Assembly: GCA_028279595.1 (NCBI GenBank)
Contig: JANQNK010000013.1
Span: forward strand, 1-64,000
From: Thermoplasmatota archaeon
Lineage (GTDB): Archaea; Thermoplasmatota; JAKEGO01
DNA length: 64,000 bases
Direction: 5' to 3'
Shown here: positions 48,861 through 57,485 of the stretch, piece by piece
How positions within the stretch are numbered: position 1 is the stretch's first letter
Layout of the letters: every line of letters starts with the position of its first letter
The notes under the pieces: model-generated
Seen by the model: the letters and a program-made list of their open reading frames with translations, nothing else
Told to the model about the DNA's origin: nothing
The model's database searches: none
Made by a program: the position numbers and the translations under genes

Positions 48861-50330
48861 TCACTCGACCTTGTCCGGCCATTCGCCTGTCTCGAGGTAC
48901 TCCTCGATCCCTGCCGCAGCAACCCTTCCGTCGCCCATTGCGAGGATGACCGTCGCGGCACCGCGGACGATGTCGCCTCCGGAGAAGACGCCCTTCTTCG
49001 AGGTCCGTCCCTTGTCGTCGACGATTATGTTGTTCCAACGATTCAGTTCAAGTCCGGGAGTGGACTTCGTCAGCAGAGGATTCGCCGATGTTCCGACGGA
49101 CACGACCACGGCGTCCACGTCGAGGGTGAACTCGCTTCCCTCGATGGGCACAGGCCTCCTCCGACCTGAGTCGTCCGGCTCGCCGAGCTCCATCTGGATG
49201 CACTCCATCGCGCGGACCCAGCCGTTCTCGTCACCCAGGTATCGGATCGGGTTCGTGAGGTTGTGGAACTCCACGCCCTCCTCCTCGGCGTGGTGGATCT
49301 CCTCGTCCCTGGCGGGCATCTCCACACGGGAGCGCCGGTACACGAGGTAGGCGTTCTCAGCGCCAAGTCTCTTGGCCGTCCTCACTGAGTCCATCGCTAC
49401 GTTGCCGCCGCCGATGACGGCGACGTTCCTTCCCCGGTAGATCGGCGTATCGTAGGTCGGGAACTCGTAACCCTTCATCAGGTTGTTCCTCGTCAGGTAC
49501 TCGTTCGCAGAGAAGATGCCGTTCAGCGACTCCCCCTCGATGTTCATGAAGCGCGGGAGTCCCGCACCCACTCCGAGGTAGACCGCGTCGAATCCCCGCT
49601 CGTCGAGCATCTCGTCGACGGTGAATATCCTGCCGATGACGTGATTGTAGTGGAACTGCACTCCCATCTGCTTGAGGTTGTCGACCTCGTAGAAGACGAG
49701 CTCCTTCGGAAGGCGGAACTCGGGGATACCGTAGATCAGCACACCTCCGGGTTTCTGCAAGGCCTCGTACACGTGGACCTCGTGACCGCTCCTGGCGAGG
49801 TCTGCGGCCACCGTCAGTCCGGAGGGTCCGGCTCCTACGATAGCCACCTTCCTCCCGGTGGGTTCGGCGGTCTCGACAGGGAGTTTCTCACTGGAATACC
49901 GCTCCAGGTCGGCCACGAAACGCTCCAGGTGGCCGATGCCGACCGACTCCCGCTTGGCCTTTACATGCGTGCACTTCCCCTCGCACTGGATCTCCTGCGG
50001 GCAGACACGTCCGGTGACCGCCGGGAGCGCGTTGTCCTCCTTTACGATCCTCAGCGCCTCGAGGAAATCGCCCTCGACGATGGCGCTCAGGAACTCCGGG
50101 ATCTTGATCCTGACGGGGCAGCCCTGGACGCATCCCGGCACAGGACATAGAAGACAGCGTTTCGCCTCCTCCTGCGCGGTCTCGATCGAGTAACCGAGGT
50201 TGACCTCCTCGAAGTTCCTCGACCTGACGATCGCGTCCTGTTCTGTCATGGCATGCCTGGACGAGGCTATGGCCGCCTTCATCTCGTCGGGCGTCAGCCT
50301 CTTTCCGGCGTACTTGTAGATATCCTCCAT
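48861..50330 (-). CDS. nfnB: NfnB/SudA (GltD-like large subunit of NADH-dependent ferredoxin:NADP+ oxidoreductase)
   Basis: RCLLC...C..GCP, GRVCPQEIQCE, GAGPSG, YGIPEFRLPK, GGGNVAMD, YRR and GGDIVRGAATVILAM. Confidence 0.9.
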   Translation of the reverse strand: MEDIYKYAGKRLTPDEMKAAIASSRHAMTEQDAIVRSRNFEEVNLGYSIETAQEEAKRCLLCPVPGCVQGCPVRIKIPEFLSAIVEGDFLEALRIVKEDNALPAVTGRVCPQEIQCEGKCTHVKAKRESVGIGHLERFVADLERYSSEKLPVETAEPTGRKVAIVGAGPSGLTVAADLARSGHEVHVYEALQKPGGVLIYGIPEFRLPKELVFYEVDNLKQMGVQFHYNHVIGRIFTVDEMLDERGFDAVYLGVGAGLPRFMNIEGESLNGIFSANEYLTRNNLMKGYEFPTYDTPIYRGRNVAVIGGGNVAMDSVRTAKRLGAENAYLVYRRSRVEMPARDEEIHHAEEEGVEFHNLTNPIRYLGDENGWVRAMECIQMELGEPDDSGRRRPVPIEGSEFTLDVDAVVVSVGTSANPLLTKSTPGLELNRWNNIIVDDKGRTSKKGVFSGGDIVRGAATVILAMGDGRVAAAGIEEYLETGEWPDKVE

Positions 50331-50332
50331 GA

Positions 50333-51175
50333 TCACACCCCCCCGCAGTGGTCTATGTCGCATTTCTTGTGCTGATAGGCGAGCGTCTGATGCGGAACGT
50401 ACTGGGCGCTCCGTTTGAAGAGCTGCTCCCAGTCCACGTCGGCACCGTCGAACTCGGGTCCATCGACGCAGGCGAACTTGGTCTCGCCCCCGACGTCGCA
50501 GCGGCACACGCCGCACATGCCCGTGGCGTCGACCATAAGTGGGTTCAGGTAGACCTTGGACGGTATGCCGAGCTCCTTGGCCATCCTCGCATTCCGCATC
50601 ATCATGAACGTGCAGCCCATGATGTAGGCCCTGTCGAAATGCCGTCCGCCGTCGACGAGGTCCTTCATGACGGTCTGGGCCTTGCCCTTCGTTCCATGGG
50701 ACCCGTCGGATGTCGCCGTGTAGATCTCGTCGGAGTCCCTTGCGAGCACCTCCTCGTTGTAGAGGAGGTACTTGGCGCGTGCCTCGATGATGGTGACCAC
50801 GGTGTTGCCTGCCTCCTTGAGAGCCTTGACGATCGGGTAGATCGCACCGACGCCGTAGCAACCGCCGCAGACGACCACTGTGCCGTAGTTGTCGATCTCC
50901 GACTCGCGGCCCAGGGGCGCCATCATGTCGATCTCGTCACCCGCGACCTTTCGCGCGAGCTTCATCGTCGAGACGCCGACCTCGAGGAAGTAGATCGTAA
51001 CAGTTCCCGCATCCTCGTCCCAGTCGGCGATGCTGAGCGGTATCCGCTCGCTCTGTTCGTCAGGGATGACGATGGCGAAATGACCCGGTTTGCACTTCTT
51101 TGCGACGTCCGGTGCATCGATGACCATCTTGTGGACGTTCGGGACCTCCTCCTCGATCGTGATGATCCTGTTCAT
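50333..51175 (-). CDS. nfnA: NfnA/SudB (small subunit, FAD/NAD-binding with [2Fe-2S])
   Basis: PGHF, ERIPLSIAD and LNPLMVDATGMCGVCR..FACVDGPEFD. Confidence 0.9.
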   Translation of the reverse strand: MNRIITIEEEVPNVHKMVIDAPDVAKKCKPGHFAIVIPDEQSERIPLSIADWDEDAGTVTIYFLEVGVSTMKLARKVAGDEIDMMAPLGRESEIDNYGTVVVCGGCYGVGAIYPIVKALKEAGNTVVTIIEARAKYLLYNEEVLARDSDEIYTATSDGSHGTKGKAQTVMKDLVDGGRHFDRAYIMGCTFMMMRNARMAKELGIPSKVYLNPLMVDATGMCGVCRCDVGGETKFACVDGPEFDGADVDWEQLFKRSAQYVPHQTLAYQHKKCDIDHCGGV

Positions 51176-53364
51176 TCGTCCCACCCCCATGAAGCGGCGA
51201 CCTCAAGGAAGTCCTCCACATCCTCCGCGATCTCGCGTCCGCGATATCTCGTGGCGGAGCAGGGCCACGGTCCGACCGGATTGACGGCGTCGTCAACCCG
51301 AACCGCTCGGTCACCCTCTGGCAGCGGCTCTCCGGGCGGGAGGTGGGTCCCGGGTTCGAGGGGCAGACCGACCGCCTCCGTGATATCGGCAACAGCCTCG
51401 AAATCGAACCCATCCAGTCCCAGCGCCCTGCCCATGTCGATGAAGACCTTCCAGTCCGGCTTTGCCATGTTCGGGAGTCGCGCGTCGCTCGTTATCGAAC
51501 CGACGCGGCCGTCGAGCGAGATCACGGTGCCCTCCGTCTCCGAGAACATCGACGACGGAAGTATGACGTCCGCCCTCTCAGAGACCTGCGAGCCGAACGG
51601 ACCCTGGTAGACGACGAACTCGACGCCCTCCGGAATCTCCGGAACTGGGTGTGTGAGGTACAGGGCCTTGATCCCCTCTCCGAGAGGGTTCCTTCCTGAC
51701 GAGTACTTGCCGGAATCCTGCTCGATGCACTGTCCGGGCGTGAGGCAGCGGGAAGCCCCGGCCTCGAGGACGCCCTGGACGTTGCCTCCGTCCCAGAGGG
51801 GCAGGAGTACCGTGCCGTTGACAGCCTCGAACAGCTCCAGTGCGAGTTTCGCAACCTGGGTCCCCTCCGCAGCGTCCCGGAAGGCACCCGGCCCGACCAG
51901 TATGGCGGTCTTGTCGGCATCCTTCAGGGCGCTGGCGATCCTCCCTGCGGCGTCGCGGTCCGGGGTATGGGGTTGCTGTCCAGGGGCCTTGACCTCCTCG
52001 AGCAGAATATCCATGAATGGACCGTACGCATCGGGTTCGATCACATCGGCATGCCTGTATCCCTTCCTGGGATCGATCTTGACATTGAACACGCTTGCGC
52101 CGTCCTTCCAGGCAGCGTGAACGTGTACCTGGGTGACGGCCGCCGTCAGGCTTAGGTCCGTGCCGACGATCAGTACGGCATCGCAGTCCCGTATGTCGGT
52201 CATCGTCCCGATGCCGGCGACGCGGTCCATCGCACCGCCCCATGCCTTCTGCATCGGGCCGGCCATGTTGGACGCTATCGCGATGTTGTCGCTTCCCAGC
52301 CCGCGCATGATTCGCTGCGCCAGGAACGCCTCCTCGACGGTCAGCGACGGGCTCACGATCATGCCGATCTCCTCGGGAGCGAACCCCTTCAGTCCCTCGA
52401 CCGCCGTCTCGAGCGCTGTCTCCCACTTCACGGGTCTCAGGACCCCATCGGTCGTCACGCGCGGATATTCCAGCCTGTCCTTCGAGTTTGTTAATGGAAC
52501 TGTGCAGTAGCGTCCCTTGAGGCAGGCCTGGGCCACGTTCTCGCCCTCCTCCGACGGCTCCGTGATCGTCATCCTGCCCCACTTGAAGCCGACGTCCATG
52601 GCGCATCCCGCCGGGCACATTACACATGTGCTCTTCCCGGTTACCTCGGGGATGCTGACCCACCTGGTCATCTTCGAGGAGATCGAGCCTGTGGGACACA
52701 CGTCCTCGCAGGCGCCGCAGAAGACGCACGAGCTGTCGACCAGCGGACCCTGGAACGCGGTGCCGATCGTGGCGTCATGGCTCCGTTCGGTGAACGCGAT
52801 GGCGGAGACACCCCTGATCTCGGCGCATACCCTGACGCACCTGCCGCAGAGTATGCAGAGGTTGTAATCCCTGTGGATGAACGGGTCCCTGCGGTACAGG
52901 GGTACGTCCTTGTACTCCGTCTCCACCCAGATGTCGTCCACCCCGAGCGCCTTCACCACGTCGAAGAGGTCGCACTCGTTCCTGTTGGGACAGAACCGGC
53001 AGCCTGTAACGCGTCCAGCCTTGGTCGGGTCCGGATGCAGGTCGAGGCACTCCTCCCTGTCGGCGCAGATGATGCACGCGCTCGGGTGCTCGGATAGTAT
53101 AAGCTGGAGGATCCTCCTCCTCAGGTCGTCCAGGTCCTCCTCGGTCGTCTCGATGACCATGTCATCCTGGACTGGGGTTGCACACGCAGGGACGAACGCC
53201 CTGAAGCCCTCCACCTTGACCAGGCAGAGGCGGCAACCGCCGAAGGCCGAGAGGTCCGGGTGGTTGCAGAGCGTCGGTATGTAGATGTCGTTCCGCCTTG
53301 CGATGTCGAGGATGGTCTCACCCTCGATGATGTCGTAATCCTTGCCGTCTATCCTCGCGGTCAT
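51172..53364 (-). CDS. NuoG/FdhA-like Fe-S subunit with a degenerate molybdopterin-fold domain (BfuA-like)
   Basis: IPTLC..CRLC..AC [2Fe-2S], HxxxCxxCxxxxxC, two CxxCxxCxxxC, and CxxCxxxC...C. No recognisable Cys/Sec metal ligand. ATGA overlaps at both ends. Confidence 0.85.
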   Translation of the reverse strand: MTARIDGKDYDIIEGETILDIARRNDIYIPTLCNHPDLSAFGGCRLCLVKVEGFRAFVPACATPVQDDMVIETTEEDLDDLRRRILQLILSEHPSACIICADREECLDLHPDPTKAGRVTGCRFCPNRNECDLFDVVKALGVDDIWVETEYKDVPLYRRDPFIHRDYNLCILCGRCVRVCAEIRGVSAIAFTERSHDATIGTAFQGPLVDSSCVFCGACEDVCPTGSISSKMTRWVSIPEVTGKSTCVMCPAGCAMDVGFKWGRMTITEPSEEGENVAQACLKGRYCTVPLTNSKDRLEYPRVTTDGVLRPVKWETALETAVEGLKGFAPEEIGMIVSPSLTVEEAFLAQRIMRGLGSDNIAIASNMAGPMQKAWGGAMDRVAGIGTMTDIRDCDAVLIVGTDLSLTAAVTQVHVHAAWKDGASVFNVKIDPRKGYRHADVIEPDAYGPFMDILLEEVKAPGQQPHTPDRDAAGRIASALKDADKTAILVGPGAFRDAAEGTQVAKLALELFEAVNGTVLLPLWDGGNVQGVLEAGASRCLTPGQCIEQDSGKYSSGRNPLGEGIKALYLTHPVPEIPEGVEFVVYQGPFGSQVSERADVILPSSMFSETEGTVISLDGRVGSITSDARLPNMAKPDWKVFIDMGRALGLDGFDFEAVADITEAVGLPLEPGTHLPPGEPLPEGDRAVRVDDAVNPVGPWPCSATRYRGREIAEDVEDFLEVAASWGWDE

Positions 53365-55235
53365 TCGACCACCTCCTTCCTTCCGGGAGAGGTCTTCTTG
53401 ACCGCGTCCTTCGGACAGATCGAATGGCACATGCCGCACTTCACGCACTGGTGCTGGTCGATGACGTGCGCTTCCTTCGGAGCGCCTGCAATGCAGCTGA
53501 CCGGGCAGTTCTTGGCGCAGAGGGTACAACCGATGCACTCGTCCGGTTCGATCGTGTATGTGACCAGTGGCTTGCACACCGCCGCCGGACATCGTCCATC
53601 AGAGATGTGCGCCTCGTACTCCTCCCTGAAGTACTTGATCGTGGAGAGGACTGGATTGGGAGCGGTCCCTCCCAGCTGACAGAGCGACCCCATCCTCACG
53701 GTGCTGCCGATCTCCTCGAGGACCTCTATGTCCCCGGGATCGCCGTTCCCGTCGCAGATCCTCTCGAGAATGTCCTTCATCTTCTTGGTGCCGATGCGGC
53801 ACGGAGGACATTTCCCGCACGACTCGTACTGTGTGAAACTAATGAAGTAGCGGGCGACGTCGACCATGCACGTCTCCTCGTCCATGACGACCATCCCGCC
53901 GGAGCCCATTATGGCCCCCGCCTGCTGGAGTGATTCGAAGTCCACGGGCAGATCGAGCATTGATTCCGGGATGCAGCCCCCGGACGGCCCCCCGGTCTGG
54001 ACGGCCTTCAGCTTCCCTCCGTCGGGGACGCCGCCGCCTATGCCTTCGACGATCTCCCTTATCGTGGTCCCCATCGGGACCTCGACGAGCCCTGGATACT
54101 TCACCTTCCCGGTGAGCGCGAAGACGGCCGTGCCCTTGGTCCCTTCCGATCCGATGGACGCGAAGTGCTCCGCGCCGAGCCTCATGATCGCGGGGACGCT
54201 GGCGAGCGACTTCACGTTGTTGATGACCGTCGGTTTTCCCCAGAGCCCTTCCTGGGCGGGATACGGAGGCCTGGGACGGGGCATTCCCCGCTTCCCCTCG
54301 ATCGAGGCCAGCAGGGCGGTCTCCTCCCCGCAGACGAACGCCCCTGCTCCCTCCTTGATGTGGATGCTGAGGCTGAAACCGCTGCCCATGATGTCCTCTC
54401 CGAGGAATCCGACCTCCTCCAGCTTCGCGATGGCGATCCTGAGCCTCTTGATCGCGAGGGGGTATTCGGCCCTCGCATAGATGTAGGCCTCGTCGGCCCC
54501 GATGGCGTAGGAGGCTGTCGTGAGTCCCTCGAGCAGTCGGTAGGGATCTCCCTCGAGGATGCTCCTGTCCATGAACGCCCCCGGGTCGCCCTCGTCGGCG
54601 TTGCACACCATGTAGCTCTTGTCGGTCCTGTTCTGCCTGCACATCTGCCATTTCCTTCCGCTAGGGAATCCGGCACCGCCGCGCCCCCTCAATCCGGACT
54701 CGAGGACGGTCTCGATGACCTCATCGGGGGTCATCGCCAGGGCCTTCTTCAGTCCCTCGAAGCCGCCCTGGGAGATGTAGTGTTCGAGCTCGACAGGGTC
54801 GATTATCCCGTTGTTCTCGGTGATTATCCTCTTCTGGGTCGCGGTGACCGGATGGTCCCAGATGCTGGGGACGTCGCCAAATGCGTCGCCTATCGAACCG
54901 AGCAGGGCCTCGGTGGGATATCTCTTGTGAGTTATGATCGAGTCAAGGAGCCCGCCCATGGTCCTGCCTTCCACCGGTCCGTAGGCCACCGGGGGATTGC
55001 CGTGGACCTGGATGGACACCAGCGGCTCGAAGCAGCATGTGCCTATGCATCCGACCTCCGAGAGCCTCAGGTCCGCACCGTTCTCGGCCATCCATCGCTC
55101 CGTCTCGCGCTTCACCTCGCCGATGCCCGCGGCGATCCCGCAGGACGCGGTCCCCAGATAGACCACCCCATCGGTCGACTGGAGGTCGTCCCAGACCTTA
55201 TCGGCCTCGGCCTTGAGCACGTCGAAATCCGTCAT
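53361..55235 (-). CDS. NuoF/HydB-like FMN/NADH-binding subunit (BfuB-like)
   Basis: N-terminal thioredoxin-like Cys domain, GLRGRGGAGF, NADEGDPGAFMDRS, FVCGEET, SCGKCPPCR, H....C....C, and a C-terminal 2x[4Fe-4S] ferredoxin. Confidence 0.92.
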   Translation of the reverse strand: MTDFDVLKAEADKVWDDLQSTDGVVYLGTASCGIAAGIGEVKRETERWMAENGADLRLSEVGCIGTCCFEPLVSIQVHGNPPVAYGPVEGRTMGGLLDSIITHKRYPTEALLGSIGDAFGDVPSIWDHPVTATQKRIITENNGIIDPVELEHYISQGGFEGLKKALAMTPDEVIETVLESGLRGRGGAGFPSGRKWQMCRQNRTDKSYMVCNADEGDPGAFMDRSILEGDPYRLLEGLTTASYAIGADEAYIYARAEYPLAIKRLRIAIAKLEEVGFLGEDIMGSGFSLSIHIKEGAGAFVCGEETALLASIEGKRGMPRPRPPYPAQEGLWGKPTVINNVKSLASVPAIMRLGAEHFASIGSEGTKGTAVFALTGKVKYPGLVEVPMGTTIREIVEGIGGGVPDGGKLKAVQTGGPSGGCIPESMLDLPVDFESLQQAGAIMGSGGMVVMDEETCMVDVARYFISFTQYESCGKCPPCRIGTKKMKDILERICDGNGDPGDIEVLEEIGSTVRMGSLCQLGGTAPNPVLSTIKYFREEYEAHISDGRCPAAVCKPLVTYTIEPDECIGCTLCAKNCPVSCIAGAPKEAHVIDQHQCVKCGMCHSICPKDAVKKTSPGRKEVVE

Positions 55236-55699
55236 TCCGACACCCCCTTCGAGACCGTCCTGTCGACGATCTCCTTGGCAGTGCCGGGAGCCATCTTCCC
55301 GTGGATCTCGTCATCGACGACGATCACCGGTGCGACAGCGCAGCATCCCATGCATGCCACCCTCTCGAGGGTGAACTTACCGTCGGGTGTGGTCCCGCCG
55401 GCCTTGACCCCGAGGTCATCCTCGATGATGTCCATTATGGCCGCGCCTCCCTTGACGTGGCACGCGGTTCCCAGACAAACCTTGACCTCGTGCTCCCCGG
55501 GCTTCGAGAACCTGAACTGTGAATAGAACGTGGCAACACCATACGCTTCGTTCCGGGAAATCCCGAGGACGTCCTCGATGGTCACGAGTGATTCTGGCGA
55601 GATGTACCCCTGTGCTTCCTGGACCGCCTGGAGAGCGGGTATTATCGCGCCCTTCCGGTCCTTGAACGATTCGATTATCTTCCTGATGTCAGTTACCAT
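55232..55699 (-). CDS. NuoE/HydC-like [2Fe-2S] subunit (BfuC-like)
   Basis: GVATFYSQF, VCLGTACHVKG and ACMGCCAVAP. Confidence 0.92.
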   Translation of the reverse strand: MVTDIRKIIESFKDRKGAIIPALQAVQEAQGYISPESLVTIEDVLGISRNEAYGVATFYSQFRFSKPGEHEVKVCLGTACHVKGGAAIMDIIEDDLGVKAGGTTPDGKFTLERVACMGCCAVAPVIVVDDEIHGKMAPGTAKEIVDRTVSKGVSE

Positions 55700-55870
55700 C
55701 CTTCAAACCCCTCCCAGCAGCTCCTCTTCGCTTGCGAGTAGAACGATTTTATAGATAAGGATTGTGGGTCTCGCACGCCCCATCCGACCGGTCATCGGCG
55801 GCTGTCACCGTCCCCTCGTTGTATCGGTAGAGCCATCGCTGTTCGTTAGCATTATGATAACAGATGCCCG

Positions 55871-57004
55871 TCAGATCTCGAACTCTTCCTGGGGCATCTC
55901 CTTCTTCTGCTCACCCGCCTCGTAGTCCTTCACGGTCTTCTCCGAGTCCTCGTCGAGCTCCTTGATCTCGAAGTCCTCGTCGTGCTGGACGTGGAGTTCC
56001 TCCACCTTGTCGTCGAAGATGACGCCCTCGGGTTCGAAATCGACGGTATCGTCGGATTCGGTCTTGAACTCCATCTCCTCGTCAGGTTCGAACTCCATCT
56101 CCTCCTCGGTCTCGAACTCCATCTCTTCCTCGGGTTCGAACTCGGTCTCCTCGTCATCAGCCTTGAACTCCATCTCCTTTTCTGGTTCGAATTCCATTTC
56201 GGCACCCTCCGGCTCGAACTCCGTATCCCCCGACTCGAAATCGACCTGGTCGGGGATGATCTCCATCTTCTCGCCCTCCTTTTCCCTCGTCTTCTTGACG
56301 ACCCTCTCAAGGGCCACCGCCGACTGCTTGTAACGAGCATCCTGCTCGGTGATCGTGTGGTGATACTCCGCGGGCCTCTTGTCCGTGGTACCCATGTATA
56401 TCGAGAAATCGAAGGCGTCCGGATCGAGGCATCCCTCGGCCACGGCCGCGACGATGAGCCCGAAGAAGAAGATAGCGATCAGGAGGAACGGTATACCGAA
56501 GGCGATCGGCGGAAAGAAGGACAATACGGTCGGGATGAGGATGGCGCCCGAGGCCAACCGGAACATATGATTGCTCTTGTCGAACTCGTTTATCGCCGTG
56601 TAACTCAATCCCATGATAGCCATTATCAGGATGATGAAGAGGAGGAGTATCAGAAGGCTCCGCGCATAGAATGGGAGGAAGTAGAAGAGGGCTAGGGGGA
56701 CGGTGATCGCGATCAATGCCCCGATCATCATCATGAAGACCGCACCTAGGAACAGGGCCGACCCCTTCCTGCTCACCTGCAGCGAGGTCTCGATGCGTCT
56801 GCCCATACCACCTATCTTGATGTACAAGGGTTCGATGCGCCTCCATATCGGATCGAGGAGCATCTCTATCTTCAACCATACGAAATTGAACCTGATTCGG
56901 ATGGGGGCGAGCTTTGCCCACACTCTCGAGAGAGCCTCCCAGATGGTCAACACGACCTTGGCGAAGAGAACGGCGGTCTTCGTCATGCCATCGGAAGCTC
57001 CCAT
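55871..57004 (-). CDS. Hypothetical 4-TM membrane protein with a long acidic repeat tail
   Basis: Four hydrophobic helices, then EFEPEEEM-type repeats. Confidence 0.7.
   Translation of the reverse strand: MGASDGMTKTAVLFAKVVLTIWEALSRVWAKLAPIRIRFNFVWLKIEMLLDPIWRRIEPLYIKIGGMGRRIETSLQVSRKGSALFLGAVFMMMIGALIAITVPLALFYFLPFYARSLLILLLFIILIMAIMGLSYTAINEFDKSNHMFRLASGAILIPTVLSFFPPIAFGIPFLLIAIFFFGLIVAAVAEGCLDPDAFDFSIYMGTTDKRPAEYHHTITEQDARYKQSAVALERVVKKTREKEGEKMEIIPDQVDFESGDTEFEPEGAEMEFEPEKEMEFKADDEETEFEPEEEMEFETEEEMEFEPDEEMEFKTESDDTVDFEPEGVIFDDKVEELHVQHDEDFEIKELDEDSEKTVKDYEAGEQKKEMPQEEFEI
56030..56245 (-). repeat. Imperfect 24-bp (8-aa) coding tandem repeat
   Basis: gaactccatctc recurs at about 24-nt spacing, encoding EFEPEEEM/EFETEEEM/EFEPDEEM. 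Confidence 0.75.
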
Positions 57005-57485
57005 CACGACCCACCCCGAGTTTCATGGGGATTGCCCTCAGTATATAAAACGATTGCCCAATGGTCATCTGATGGACGGTTTTCCGGTAATGGGAATGAC
57101 CGCTCCACCGCCGATGAATTATCTGTTTCTCAAGGAAGGTAGGATCAGTGAACGCCCGGAATTTTAATCAGAAAAAACCGACGGATCCGTCGACTCACTT
57201 TATTCCGCTTTTTTTCCAGAACCTGCTAGCCCGGAAACCGGAAAATCGTCCTGCCAAAATGAAATTTTTTTCCCGCAGGCCGCAGGAAAACAACAGGCAC
57301 TGGCTATCAGAAAAACAGTTGAGTTTCTCAGTTTTCATCCCGTGGATATATCCTGTGATGACCGAAATAAAAACCTCGAAAATCCGATGATTATCACCTT
57401 CGGTTTTTTGGTGTTTTCCCAGTTATCTTTAAATATCATCCAGACAATCTGCCGTAGGGTGGTCGGAATCGTCGACAAACGGCGG

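Follow-up and report, generated by a model that had tools for sequence, protein, structure and literature searches.

A BfuABC–NfnSL Gene Cluster Predicted to Encode a Five-Subunit Bfu-Family Enzyme in Thermoplasmatota and Other Anaerobes

Introduction

Five genes in series on the minus strand of the window (the whole stretch of DNA analysed here, 64,000 nucleotides from a Thermoplasmatota archaeon) probably specify the five subunits of a single soluble Bfu-family enzyme, the physical assembly of which we infer. Electron bifurcation is the route by which energy-starved anaerobes arrive at low-potential ferredoxin without ATP. The literature treats NfnSL and Bfu enzymes as unrelated solutions to one transhydrogenase problem, and no description of an enzyme combining BfuABC with NfnSL was found in the literature searched. 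The original prediction had called the arrangement distinct, and indeed no such type figures in the Bfu classification of Schut 2022 or in later papers. Judged from sequence, the cluster is a variant of the Bfu family that is common in uncultured anaerobes. In Thermoplasmatota, Asgard archaea, Desulfobacterota, Zixibacteria and other groups, where its genes presently carry the separate annotations 'NADH dehydrogenase' and 'glutamate synthase/sulfide dehydrogenase', it alters the reconstructed metabolism. A Bfu-NfnSL operon would extend the Bfu classification by a new subunit type and would provide a simple, purely soluble system for asking whether bifurcation modules stack.

Results and Discussion

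Operon layout

The features of the operon are as follows:

55747..55758, minus strand: TATA-like box TTATCTATAAAA, read directly, upstream of BfuC at a distance of about 50 nt from its start
55232..55699, minus strand: BfuC, NuoE/HydC-like, 155 aa (PF01257, 163 bits; NuoE/HoxE-type NCBIfam matches)
53361..55235, minus strand: BfuB, long NuoF/HydB-like subunit, 624 aa (Pfam/NCBIfam domains; full-length matches to solved chains)
51172..53364, minus strand: BfuA, NuoG/Fdh-like scaffold, 730 aa (Pfam/NCBIfam domains; cluster ligands)
50333..51175, minus strand: NfnS (= NfnA), Bfu-linked clade, 280 aa (PRK06222; motifs; clade)
48861..50330, minus strand: NfnL (= NfnB), 489 aa, canonical (TIGR01316, 610 bits; 554 bits to 4ylf_B)

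Direct reading of the junctions in the window bears out the originally predicted chain of five genes, with ATGA overlaps at BfuC/BfuB, BfuB/BfuA and BfuA/NfnA and a 2-nt gap between NfnA and NfnB (NfnA stop, TC, NfnB ATG). The overlap of NfnA with BfuA depends on the second ATG, at 51175, a start backed by an end-to-end match to NCBIfam PRK06222; an alternative open ATG lies upstream at 51190. The TATA-like box, which is followed by a GGAGG-like ribosome site ahead of BfuC, is the probable operon promoter. The five-gene arrangement is not a chance one, the same order being conserved in dozens of genomes. An M18 aminopeptidase gene adjoins the operon, and subtilase and AOR genes are found elsewhere in the same genome; the link to peptide fermentation that had been drawn earlier comes down to this context and, as worded, is not supported.

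Bifurcating core and pterin-less scaffold

BfuC is a thioredoxin-like [2Fe-2S] subunit (domain 2Fe-2S_thioredx), single copy by tblastn in its own genome, which holds one BfuBC pair. BfuB opens with about 145 extra, Cys-bearing residues, whose counterpart in solved BfuB/HydB chains is the N-terminal domain by alignment; the Pfam domains Complex1_51K, SLBB and NADH_4Fe-4S follow, and the C-terminus holds a 2x[4Fe-4S]. Its FMN/NADH domain contains GAFMDR and is accompanied by the B1 cluster motif, H-x5-C-x4-C (Zn/B2) and the tail dicluster; GAFMDR, H-x5-C-x4-C and the tail dicluster match T. sibiricus NfnB and A. mobile HydB residue for residue. Full-length matches were obtained to 9n5u_B (T. 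sibiricus NfnB, 735 bits), 7t2r_B, 9bov_B and 8oh5_B, and all motifs on which the NuoF-like subunit had been assigned to the bifurcating HydB/BfuB type are conserved against 9n5u_B and 7t2r_B. The sequence hallmarks of a Bfu enzyme are present: the FMN/NADH domain, B1 and the extra B2–B5 sites in BfuB (by Pfam and alignment), the [2Fe-2S] of BfuC, and a NuoG-like BfuA with A1–A5 in which every ligand column is conserved. The activity expected of the family, in which a third substrate reduces NAD+ and ferredoxin in tight coupling, is predicted here.

BfuA contains Fer2_4, NADH-G_4Fe-4S_3, Fer4_Nqo3, Molybdop_Fe4S4 and Molybdopterin domains, and the Pfam search returned neither PF01568, the last pterin-binding domain (domain IV), nor a Fer4_20 or Pyr_redox_2 domain. 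The ligands of clusters A1–A5 are complete. The Sec/Cys and His of formate dehydrogenases are absent, as predicted, the active-site VCHSP of R. capsulatus FdsA aligning to NMA-GP, and the description of the ABC module as 'headless' is apt in that a full bifurcating-type BfuBC is joined to a BfuA that lacks a catalytic head. Among solved proteins, BfuA finds its best relative in the portion of C. saccharolyticus NfnA that resembles Fdh/NuoG (9bov_A residues 560-808); Type 1 Nfn-Bfu enzymes have three subunits with an NfnL/GltD-like domain inside BfuA, and here NfnL and NfnS are separate genes. The A5 ligands are all retained in every BfuA from loci with NfnAB (Nfn+) that covers this region, including forms of 520-560 aa devoid of most of the pterin-like domain. 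An extra triad C-x2-C-x5-C (C122, C125, C131) was considered as a marker of an NfnSL-specific port and rejected, since Sec-containing Fdh-type relatives share it.

The genome to which the window belongs is 86% complete and a partner gene could be missing from it. Within this 86%, searches for a PF01568 protein, an Fdh, an [FeFe] hydrogenase and NuoH or NuoD (PF00146, PF00346) gave no match. A hydrogenase partner was discarded, in keeping with the predicted lack of an H-cluster or NiFe partner, as no [FeFe] enzyme was found and the sole [NiFe] hydrogenase, group-3b-like and encoded about 36 kb away, has its own Fer4/FAD/NAD subunit. Three AOR genes lie elsewhere in the genome. The reading of BfuA as a working formate dehydrogenase, or of the NuoEFG-like genes as the NADH input of a membrane complex I-like enzyme, draws on weak, sub-cut-off NCBIfam matches to Fdh-alpha and NuoG and on Sec-containing Fdh-type relatives in Dehalococcoidia and Bacillota, but is highly improbable: BfuA has no Cys/Sec-His and no PF01568, a pterin-binding-domain protein is not encountered in the genome, nor is a membrane arm in either operon or genome at 86% completeness, and BfuB carries the extra domains of bifurcating enzymes.

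Canonical NfnL and a specialised NfnS

NfnL exceeds the cut-off of TIGR01316 with 610 bits, scores 554 bits against T. maritima NfnB (4ylf_B) and has the motifs that mark an NfnSL large subunit, namely both [4Fe-4S] clusters, the EFRLP Arg at N5 of the bifurcating FAD, and the Arg pair of the YRRS motif for NADPH. A specialised NfnL clade was ruled out, there being no discriminating columns, and a single clade of free copies is rejected (AU p = 0.00014).

NfnS retains the FAD motif ERxPxS/T and the Asp/Cys3 [2Fe-2S] motif expected of an NfnSL small subunit, and has a Cys/His in its C-terminal tail. The NAD(H)-pocket motifs of T. maritima and P. furiosus (GGGVGxA, xGPxxMM) are absent from it, the corresponding motifs in the window being GGCYGVG, GCTFMM, SDWD and IEARA. 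Across linked NfnS the pocket changes are GGGxGxAP to GGC[YF]GxG, GP to GC and AD[FYK]D to DWD, together with a conserved Trp, and the columns that discriminate linked from free copies are N13, W52, C106, G110, E131, C188 and T189. The linked proteins fall on one side of a branch separating them from free copies (SH-aLRT 99). We describe Bfu-linked NfnS as a separate clade with a remodelled NAD(H) pocket, which is new here; of the 'complete NfnAB' claimed originally, the canonical NfnL stands, whereas NfnS belongs to this distinct clade. In a survey of 401 Thermoplasmatota genomes seeded from NfnS, the remodelled signature coincided with BfuA adjacency in 15 of the 15 assessable cases, and none of 40 canonical NfnS lay directly behind a BfuA of the pterin-less type. 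In the sample examined the clade occurs behind BfuA only, never free-standing. The linked NfnS of two loci (L050 and L055) keep canonical motifs, and their BfuA keep the Cys-His site.

Distribution, fusions and the case for one complex

The synteny survey proposed with the original prediction finds the five-gene order to recur widely. Among 83 loci fetched through BfuA, which are mutually related so that counts overstate independence, the order BfuC-B-A-NfnA-NfnB is found in 40, a BfuA-NfnA fusion in 6 and a permuted order in 1, about 47 of 83 in total. The Nfn+ loci span more than 12 phyla, with Thermoplasmatota, Asgard archaea, Desulfobacterota, Zixibacteria, Bacteroidota, Ignavibacteria, Omnitrophota, WOR-3, Clostridia and others represented. 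Loss of the Fdh active site in BfuA correlates with an NfnAB neighbour: the site is absent in 44 and present in 3 Nfn+ loci, and in loci without NfnAB the Sec/Cys-His is present in 19 and absent in 5. One apparent headless BfuA without NfnAB (L027) was set aside because a 100-N scaffold gap falls exactly after BfuA.

In the six fusions NfnS sits at the BfuA C-terminus; five are confirmed by Pfam (L032, L094, L039, L054, L069) and the sixth (L061) was called from the ORF and tblastn alone. That BfuA and NfnA form a single protein in six loci makes one complex likely and, with the linkage across many phyla, backs the direct wiring originally suggested. The translational coupling of all five genes in the window favours the same reading. 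Synteny and fusions together indicate a functional link, not a mechanism.

Set against this is the view that two enzymes are merely co-transcribed, an ordinary NfnSL and an orphan BfuABC with its catalytic partner elsewhere (for instance an AOR, of which the genome has three, after the manner of WorABCSL), sharing an operon because both manage NAD(P)H and ferredoxin pools. Canonical NfnAB pairs do adjoin Bfu genes in some genomes, and do so directly in many Thermoplasmatota, an observation that fits co-regulated separate transhydrogenases as well as distinct functions; moreover, NfnL is indistinguishable from free copies, the genome has AOR genes of its own, and Schut 2022 cautions that gene adjacency can mislead. 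We nevertheless consider co-transcription alone improbable in view of the six fusions, the confinement of the NfnS clade and its rebuilt pocket to positions behind BfuA, the tracking of pterin-site loss with NfnAB presence, and the finding of no AOR or hydrogenase gene adjacent in the Nfn+ loci inspected.

Proposed enzyme and its wiring

In the favoured single complex, BfuB and BfuC would form the NAD(H)- and ferredoxin-reactive core, of the FMN 'flavobicluster' type, and BfuA an iron-sulfur scaffold derived from an Fdh by loss of the pterin site, with the NfnS-NfnL pair taking the place of the former catalytic head. From this position we propose NADP(H) as the third substrate, with the NfnL FAD as its binding site. 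NfnS would serve as adaptor and, its own NAD(H) pocket being rebuilt, NAD(H) is probably handled at BfuB; an NfnS that has given up NAD has a precedent in P. furiosus NfnII, whose NADH domain is altered and which shows no activity with NAD. The complex would thereby interconvert NADPH, NADH and reduced ferredoxin. Cluster contacts, any bifurcation at the NfnL flavin and the stoichiometry are all putative. The port on BfuA is ambiguous, as the fusions involve NfnS, yet the solved NfnABC/Stn enzymes feed BfuA via the NfnL-like cluster pair.

The NfnL FAD and the FMN-cluster site of BfuBC might operate as two bifurcation sites in series, as the originally predicted 'double' bifurcating complex would require, a suggestion we put forward tentatively. 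Wiring via the low-potential arm of NfnL would possibly give 4 NADPH + 3 NAD+ + Fd(ox, 2 e-) = 4 NADP+ + 3 NADH + Fd(red), and wiring via NfnS into BfuA possibly 4 NADP+ + NADH + 3 Fd(red, 2 e-) -> 4 NADPH, both of these non-canonical stoichiometries being our own arithmetic with the working potentials quoted in Schut 2022. Either, if true, would bring ferredoxin or NADPH potentials beyond the reach of ordinary Nfn, and the two-site enzyme would be widespread among anaerobes of sediments, Asgard archaea among them.

A sub-variant of this favoured explanation, still a one-complex reading, is that the enzyme is a split Nfn-Bfu, equivalent to NfnABC/Stn, with both exits from a non-bifurcating NfnL flavin leading into the BfuA chain and bifurcation at BfuBC only (2 NADPH + NAD+ + Fd(ox) = 2 NADP+ + NADH + Fd(red)). 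C. saccharolyticus NfnA and S. ovata StnA are, in their Fdh/NuoG-like part, the proteins most similar to BfuA, the NfnL-like FAD in the NfnABC/Stn enzymes is a plain NADPH site, and the lost NAD site on NfnS would fit, with NAD(H) binding at BfuB. It is, however, somewhat doubtful: NfnL retains the EFRLP Arg, the mark of the NfnSL bifurcating FAD, the canonical NfnSL adjacent in many relatives would be redundant, and Thermococcaceae are reported to have either NfnABC or NfnSL, not both.

Comparison with known systems

The Nfn-Bfu/NfnABC/StnABC enzymes (S. ovata 8oh5, C. saccharolyticus 9bov, T. sibiricus 9n5u; Type 1 Bfu, Schut 2022) have the same BfuB-BfuC core, the window BfuB scoring 710-735 bits against their solved B subunits, and share with the window cluster an NfnL-type FAD module and NADP(H) as the likely third substrate. 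Bacterial NfnA/StnA possess the same dead, pterin-less Fdh/NuoG-like scaffold, fused to the NfnL-like domain, which in these enzymes is inserted inside BfuA, without NfnS. In the window, by contrast, NfnL is a separate canonical subunit with the bifurcating-FAD Arg, and there is a specialised NfnS, fused to the BfuA C-terminus in some lineages. The A subunit of NfnABC/Stn corresponds to an Fdh-type BfuA that lost its pterin and had NfnL fused in, and Bfu-NfnSL could plausibly represent an intermediate, or else a side branch, in the evolution that led to these enzymes. The Type 1 Fdh-Bfu of Dehalococcoidia and Bacillota (L066-L097) have a homologous BfuA with A1–A5, the same BfuC-B-A order and, in most but not all, the extra Cys triad; they keep the CARL-U/C-H active site, mostly without NfnAB, whereas the window BfuA has lost the active site and gained NfnSL.

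Compared with NfnSL, the window NfnL shares all cluster, FAD and NADPH motifs with the T. maritima enzyme (4ylf), and NfnS shares the FAD and [2Fe-2S] motifs with P. furiosus NfnI (244 bits to 5jca_S, 5jca), but differs from both in GGC[YF]G, GC and DWD and in forming its own clade. The class II benzoyl-CoA reductase BamB-I (bioRxiv 10.64898/2026.04.10.717634) combines a HydBC/Bfu-type module and a second flavin-based bifurcation module sequentially in one complex, and the enzyme proposed here, if two-site coupling is true, would be the second known to couple two such modules. BamB-I has an HdrA-like second module and reduces an aromatic ring as its end reaction, whereas in the window the second module would be NfnSL, with pyridine nucleotides and ferredoxin as the only substrates.

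Results and Discussion

The operon and the protein directly ahead of it map to the following positions:

48861–55699, minus strand: five-gene cluster encoding BfuC, BfuB, BfuA, NfnA (NfnS) and NfnB (NfnL)
55871–57007, minus strand, the same strand as the operon: 378-aa protein directly upstream

As originally predicted, ATGA overlaps are seen at three junctions (BfuC/BfuB, BfuB/BfuA and BfuA/NfnA) and only 2 nt separate the NfnA stop from the NfnB start. The reading of the BfuA/NfnA overlap takes the second NfnA ATG, at 51175, from which NfnA matches NCBIfam PRK06222 end to end. A TATA-like box and a GGAGG site lie ahead of BfuC. The upstream protein, an acidic membrane protein for which no Pfam match was found, has N-terminal hydrophobic segments and a long acidic tail with EEMEFE-like repeats, and on the other flank of the operon lies a convergent M18 aminopeptidase gene; the unit therefore comprises exactly five genes.

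BfuC is a thioredoxin-like [2Fe-2S] protein. BfuB (624 aa) gives full-length matches to the B subunits of solved bifurcating enzymes, namely T. sibiricus NfnABC (735 bits), A. mobile NiFe-HydABCSL, C. saccharolyticus NfnABC, S. ovata Stn and HydABC, whereas respiratory NuoF aligns with only about 390 bits and over the core region alone. The marks that had been read from the sequence are all kept in the BfuB alignment: the N-terminal Cys domain, the GAFMDR stretch, the H-x5-C-x4-C site after the domain of cluster B1 and the two C-terminal [4Fe-4S] motifs. Measured against the sequence criteria of Schut 2022, BfuB is of the bifurcating type. BfuA (730 aa) carries ligands for the Fe-S clusters A1 ([2Fe-2S]), A2 (His/Cys3), A3/A4 and A5, with two further elements:

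52972–53001: extra C-x2-C-x5-C triad, BfuA residues 122–131
51241–51277: C-terminal motif [FY]RG-x4-E-x-V-x-D[LF], region of BfuA residues 697–708

The triad follows the A2 motif, which it resembles as a duplicate without the His, and its position is the insertion site of the NfnL-like domain in bacterial NfnA/StnA. It is kept in all BfuA proteins with an NfnAB neighbor (Nfn+) and also in many formate dehydrogenase (Fdh)-type relatives. The C-terminal motif is found about 25 residues from the BfuA end or, in fusions, where BfuA passes into NfnS, and may serve for docking. It is present in the clade of archaeal, Desulfobacterota and Asgard proteins and was not seen in the Bacteroidota/Zixibacteria clade. 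In the molybdopterin-like domain PF00384 is recognized and PF01568 was not found, and the VCHSP of R. capsulatus FdsA, with its Mo-ligand Cys and catalytic His, aligns to NMA-GP, which agrees with the predicted lack of the Fdh Cys/Sec ligand. The closest solved match of BfuA is the Fdh/NuoG-like part of C. saccharolyticus NfnA, in which, according to the cryo-EM authors, the pterin site is incomplete and pterin density absent.

The original prediction of a complete NfnAB holds for NfnL, in which all motifs are kept, and fails for NfnS, whose NAD-pocket motifs are altered. NfnL scores 554 bits against T. maritima NfnB and 518 bits against P. furiosus NfnI-L, and retains both [4Fe-4S] motifs, the YRRS NADPH motif and the EFRLP Arg, which in NfnSL contacts N5 of the bifurcating FAD. 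NfnS (244 bits to P. furiosus NfnI-S) retains the ERIPLS flavin motif and the D/C/C/C [2Fe-2S] motif. We aligned 47 NfnS copies encoded beside BfuA ("linked") with 10 copies from the same loci that have no direct BfuA link. In place of the GGGxGxA seen in the free copies, in T. maritima NfnA and in P. furiosus NfnI-S, linked NfnS reads GGC[YF]GxG; it also has GC(T)FMM versus GPxxMM in the free copies, SDWD versus AD[FYK]D and IEARS versus xGARS, and about three-quarters of the linked copies bear a C-terminal tail Cys. Numbered as in the window, the positions that tell the two groups apart are N13, W52, C106, G110, E131, C188 and T189. One of the 10 (L063), lying 5 kb downstream of its BfuA, shows the linked signature and falls among the linked copies, and a branch with SH-aLRT 99 separates the other nine from the remaining 48. 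Canonical motifs are kept by two linked NfnS (L050 and L055), and these are the ones whose BfuA retains CARLCH. For NfnL, no column separates linked from free copies, and a single clade of the free copies is rejected (AU test, p = 0.00014). Judged by these sequence patterns, NfnS is a specialized piece of the cluster.

Loss of the pterin site was set against the presence of NfnAB. The active site is missing in 44 and present in 3 of the Nfn+ loci, and present in 19 and missing in 5 of the loci without an NfnAB neighbor (Nfn−); these counts are descriptive, with no statistical test, because the loci are mutually related. The Nfn− BfuA relatives, mostly from Dehalococcoidia and Bacillota, either halt at a TGA inside CARL-U-H(A/S)PTV, which is the classical active site with selenocysteine, or have CARLCH. 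In Dehalococcoidia and Bacillota loci from L066 to L097 this in-frame TGA splits the ORFs under standard translation, and by sequence their BfuA proteins are selenocysteine Fdh-type Bfu enzymes. Among the Nfn− loci without an active site, L063 is the one with signature-positive NfnAB 5 kb downstream. L027, from a Thermoplasmatales MAG "chromosome" (CP070724.1), was rejected as a BfuA without both pterin site and NfnAB: 100 N at ~10.2–10.6 kb of the locus, right after BfuA, precede DNA of 31–38% G+C and are a scaffold join hiding what follows. The A5 ligands are kept in every Nfn+ BfuA reaching that region, including forms of 520–560 aa from which most of the pterin-like domain is gone, a retention consistent with A5 being in use; in the solved bacterial NfnA, the A2-A4-A5 branch was read as a dead end in the cryo-EM paper.

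From the side of NfnS, 401 Thermoplasmatota genomes were searched with the window's protein and 57 neighborhoods fetched. All 17 signature-positive NfnS score at least 300 bits, 15 being directly downstream of BfuA and 2 at contig ends. None of the 40 canonical NfnS sampled in Thermoplasmatota is directly preceded by a pterin-less BfuA, and a few have other Bfu-type genes some kb off. Each of the best 120 database relatives of the window's NfnS has at least one signature motif in a rough pattern scan, which missed some motifs by position, and the whole set appears to belong to the linked type. A second, canonical NfnAB stands beside the five-gene cluster in many Thermoplasmatota (L099, L100, L102, L103 in family f38; L108–L111, L114 in f16; L016, L017 in f12), immediately after it in one family and upstream or divergent in others; in genome G012 the upstream pair is one fused ORF of 788 aa.

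The gene order itself recurs in G002, of the same taxonomic order, and in G012 and G022, of another family in which a second NfnAB lies ahead of the cluster. A BfuA alignment, run against a single genome of each prokaryotic species, gave 594 relatives, and the best 80, together with the window and two loci from a related-genome search, make up 83 loci. Here the predicted order BfuC-BfuB-BfuA-NfnA-NfnB is found on one strand in 40, a single BfuA + NfnA ORF followed by NfnB in 6 and a permuted order in 1, with 12 cut by contig ends. Pfam confirms five of these fusions (Promethearchaeota, Ca. Deferrimicrobium and Omnitrophota), with NuoG-type domains and Molybdopterin in front and DHODB_Fe-S_bind at the end; the sixth (L061, Hodarchaeota) was called from its ORF and by tblastn. 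Hosts of the cluster are Thermoplasmatota, Asgard archaea, Desulfobacterota, Thermodesulfobacteriaceae, Zixibacteria and Ignavibacteria, and also Bacteroidota, Terriglobia, Clostridia, Omnitrophota, WOR-3 and Dehalococcoidales. Domains are intermixed in the BfuB tree, with for example Thermoplasmatales beside Desulfobacterota, which suggests that the five genes travel together as a block. In Methanothrix harundinacea (L064) BfuC-B-A is followed by signature-type NfnS with no NfnL hit, and in one Promethearchaeota locus (L047) a 2x[4Fe-4S] domain takes the place of NfnS at the BfuA C-terminus.

Other partners for the Bfu module were sought in the genome of the window (G000; 2.29 Mb, 21 contigs, 86% complete), in which the window is C10:1–64000 and three loci deserve mention:

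C10:90.1–95.0 kb (L098:6111–11017), beyond the window: sole [NiFe] hydrogenase
C4:199.5–202.1 kb (L001:7510–10077): second BfuA-like protein, ORF of 855 aa
C21:68.8–75.2 kb (L002:6848–13198): flavoprotein trio

BfuC and BfuB each occur once (tblastn), and neither a second BfuBC pair nor a free canonical NfnSL was found in G000. PF01568, Fe_hyd_lg_C, NuoH and NuoD have no match in this 86% complete genome. The [NiFe] hydrogenase locus encodes large and small subunits, a HycI-type protease and a 644-aa Fer4_22 + FAD_binding_6 + NAD_binding_1 + DHODB Fe-S subunit; the enzyme resembles the NAD(P)-linked hydrogenases of group 3b. With this subunit of its own and with no Fe_hyd_lg_C match in the 86% complete genome, the view that the NuoG-like subunit has no H-cluster or NiFe partner stands. 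None of the three AOR genes adjoins the operon. In the second BfuA-like protein, N-terminal Fe-S domains of the NuoG type precede a GltD/NfnL-like FAD domain; its gene sits immediately behind those for an HgdB-like protein and two BcrAD/BadFG ATPases (a 2-hydroxyacyl-CoA-dehydratase-like set), with metallo-beta-lactamase, Sir2 and AOR nearby. The uncharacterized trio comprises a 1037-aa protein (GltD-like FAD domain, 2x[4Fe-4S], weak CCG-domain match), a Fer2_4/Pyr_redox_2/BFD protein and a DAO-family oxidase.

The comparative evidence gives good support to a single complex of the five subunits, which we consider probable; stacked bifurcation within it is possible, though less likely than not. 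Such a complex would be expected to hold one FMN, two FAD and roughly 11–12 Fe-S clusters, and no Mo, W or pterin. NfnSL would dock on pterin-less BfuA via NfnS, with NADP(H) reacting at the NfnL FAD and NAD(H) and ferredoxin (Fd) at BfuBC. Three wirings are conceivable, with ratios from our own arithmetic on working potentials quoted in Schut 2022. Both exits of a non-bifurcating NfnL flavin could enter BfuA, giving the ordinary reaction (2 NADPH : 1 NADH : 1 Fd); BfuA could take its electrons from the NfnL cluster pair, on the pattern of NfnABC/Stn, with NfnS still serving a high-potential partner (4 NADPH : 3 NADH : 1 Fd); or the NfnS flavin could feed BfuA (4 NADPH : 1 NADH : 3 Fd). The fusions and the rebuilt NAD pocket favor an NfnS–BfuA contact, homology with Stn favors an NfnL–BfuA contact, and both may exist at once. 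That canonical NfnSL is often next door argues mildly for a reaction other than the simple canonical one.

Coupled bifurcation modules have been shown in class II benzoyl-CoA reductase and suggested for HdrA-NfnB fusions of ANME-1, and in two cryo-EM papers of 2025 NfnSL and NfnABC figure as alternatives with no relation to each other. In several of the Dehalococcoidales loci L050, L067, L081, L084 and L085, a GltD/NfnL-like coding stretch (~40% identity to NfnL) lies right behind BfuB, at most a small gap away, and precedes a Cys-His or Sec-His (Fdh-type) BfuA; this has the look of a further Bfu layout linked to NADP(H). The classification of Schut 2022 (Types 1–4) enters Nfn-Bfu only as a BfuA fusion, and full-text literature searches returned no description of a BfuABC + NfnSL cluster, in keeping with the distinct arrangement first proposed. 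We place the cluster in the Bfu family as a new variant: in solved Nfn-Bfu/Stn the NfnL-like domain is fused inside BfuA, whereas in the window NfnL and NfnS are separate genes. The NfnS signature and specialization are also new here.
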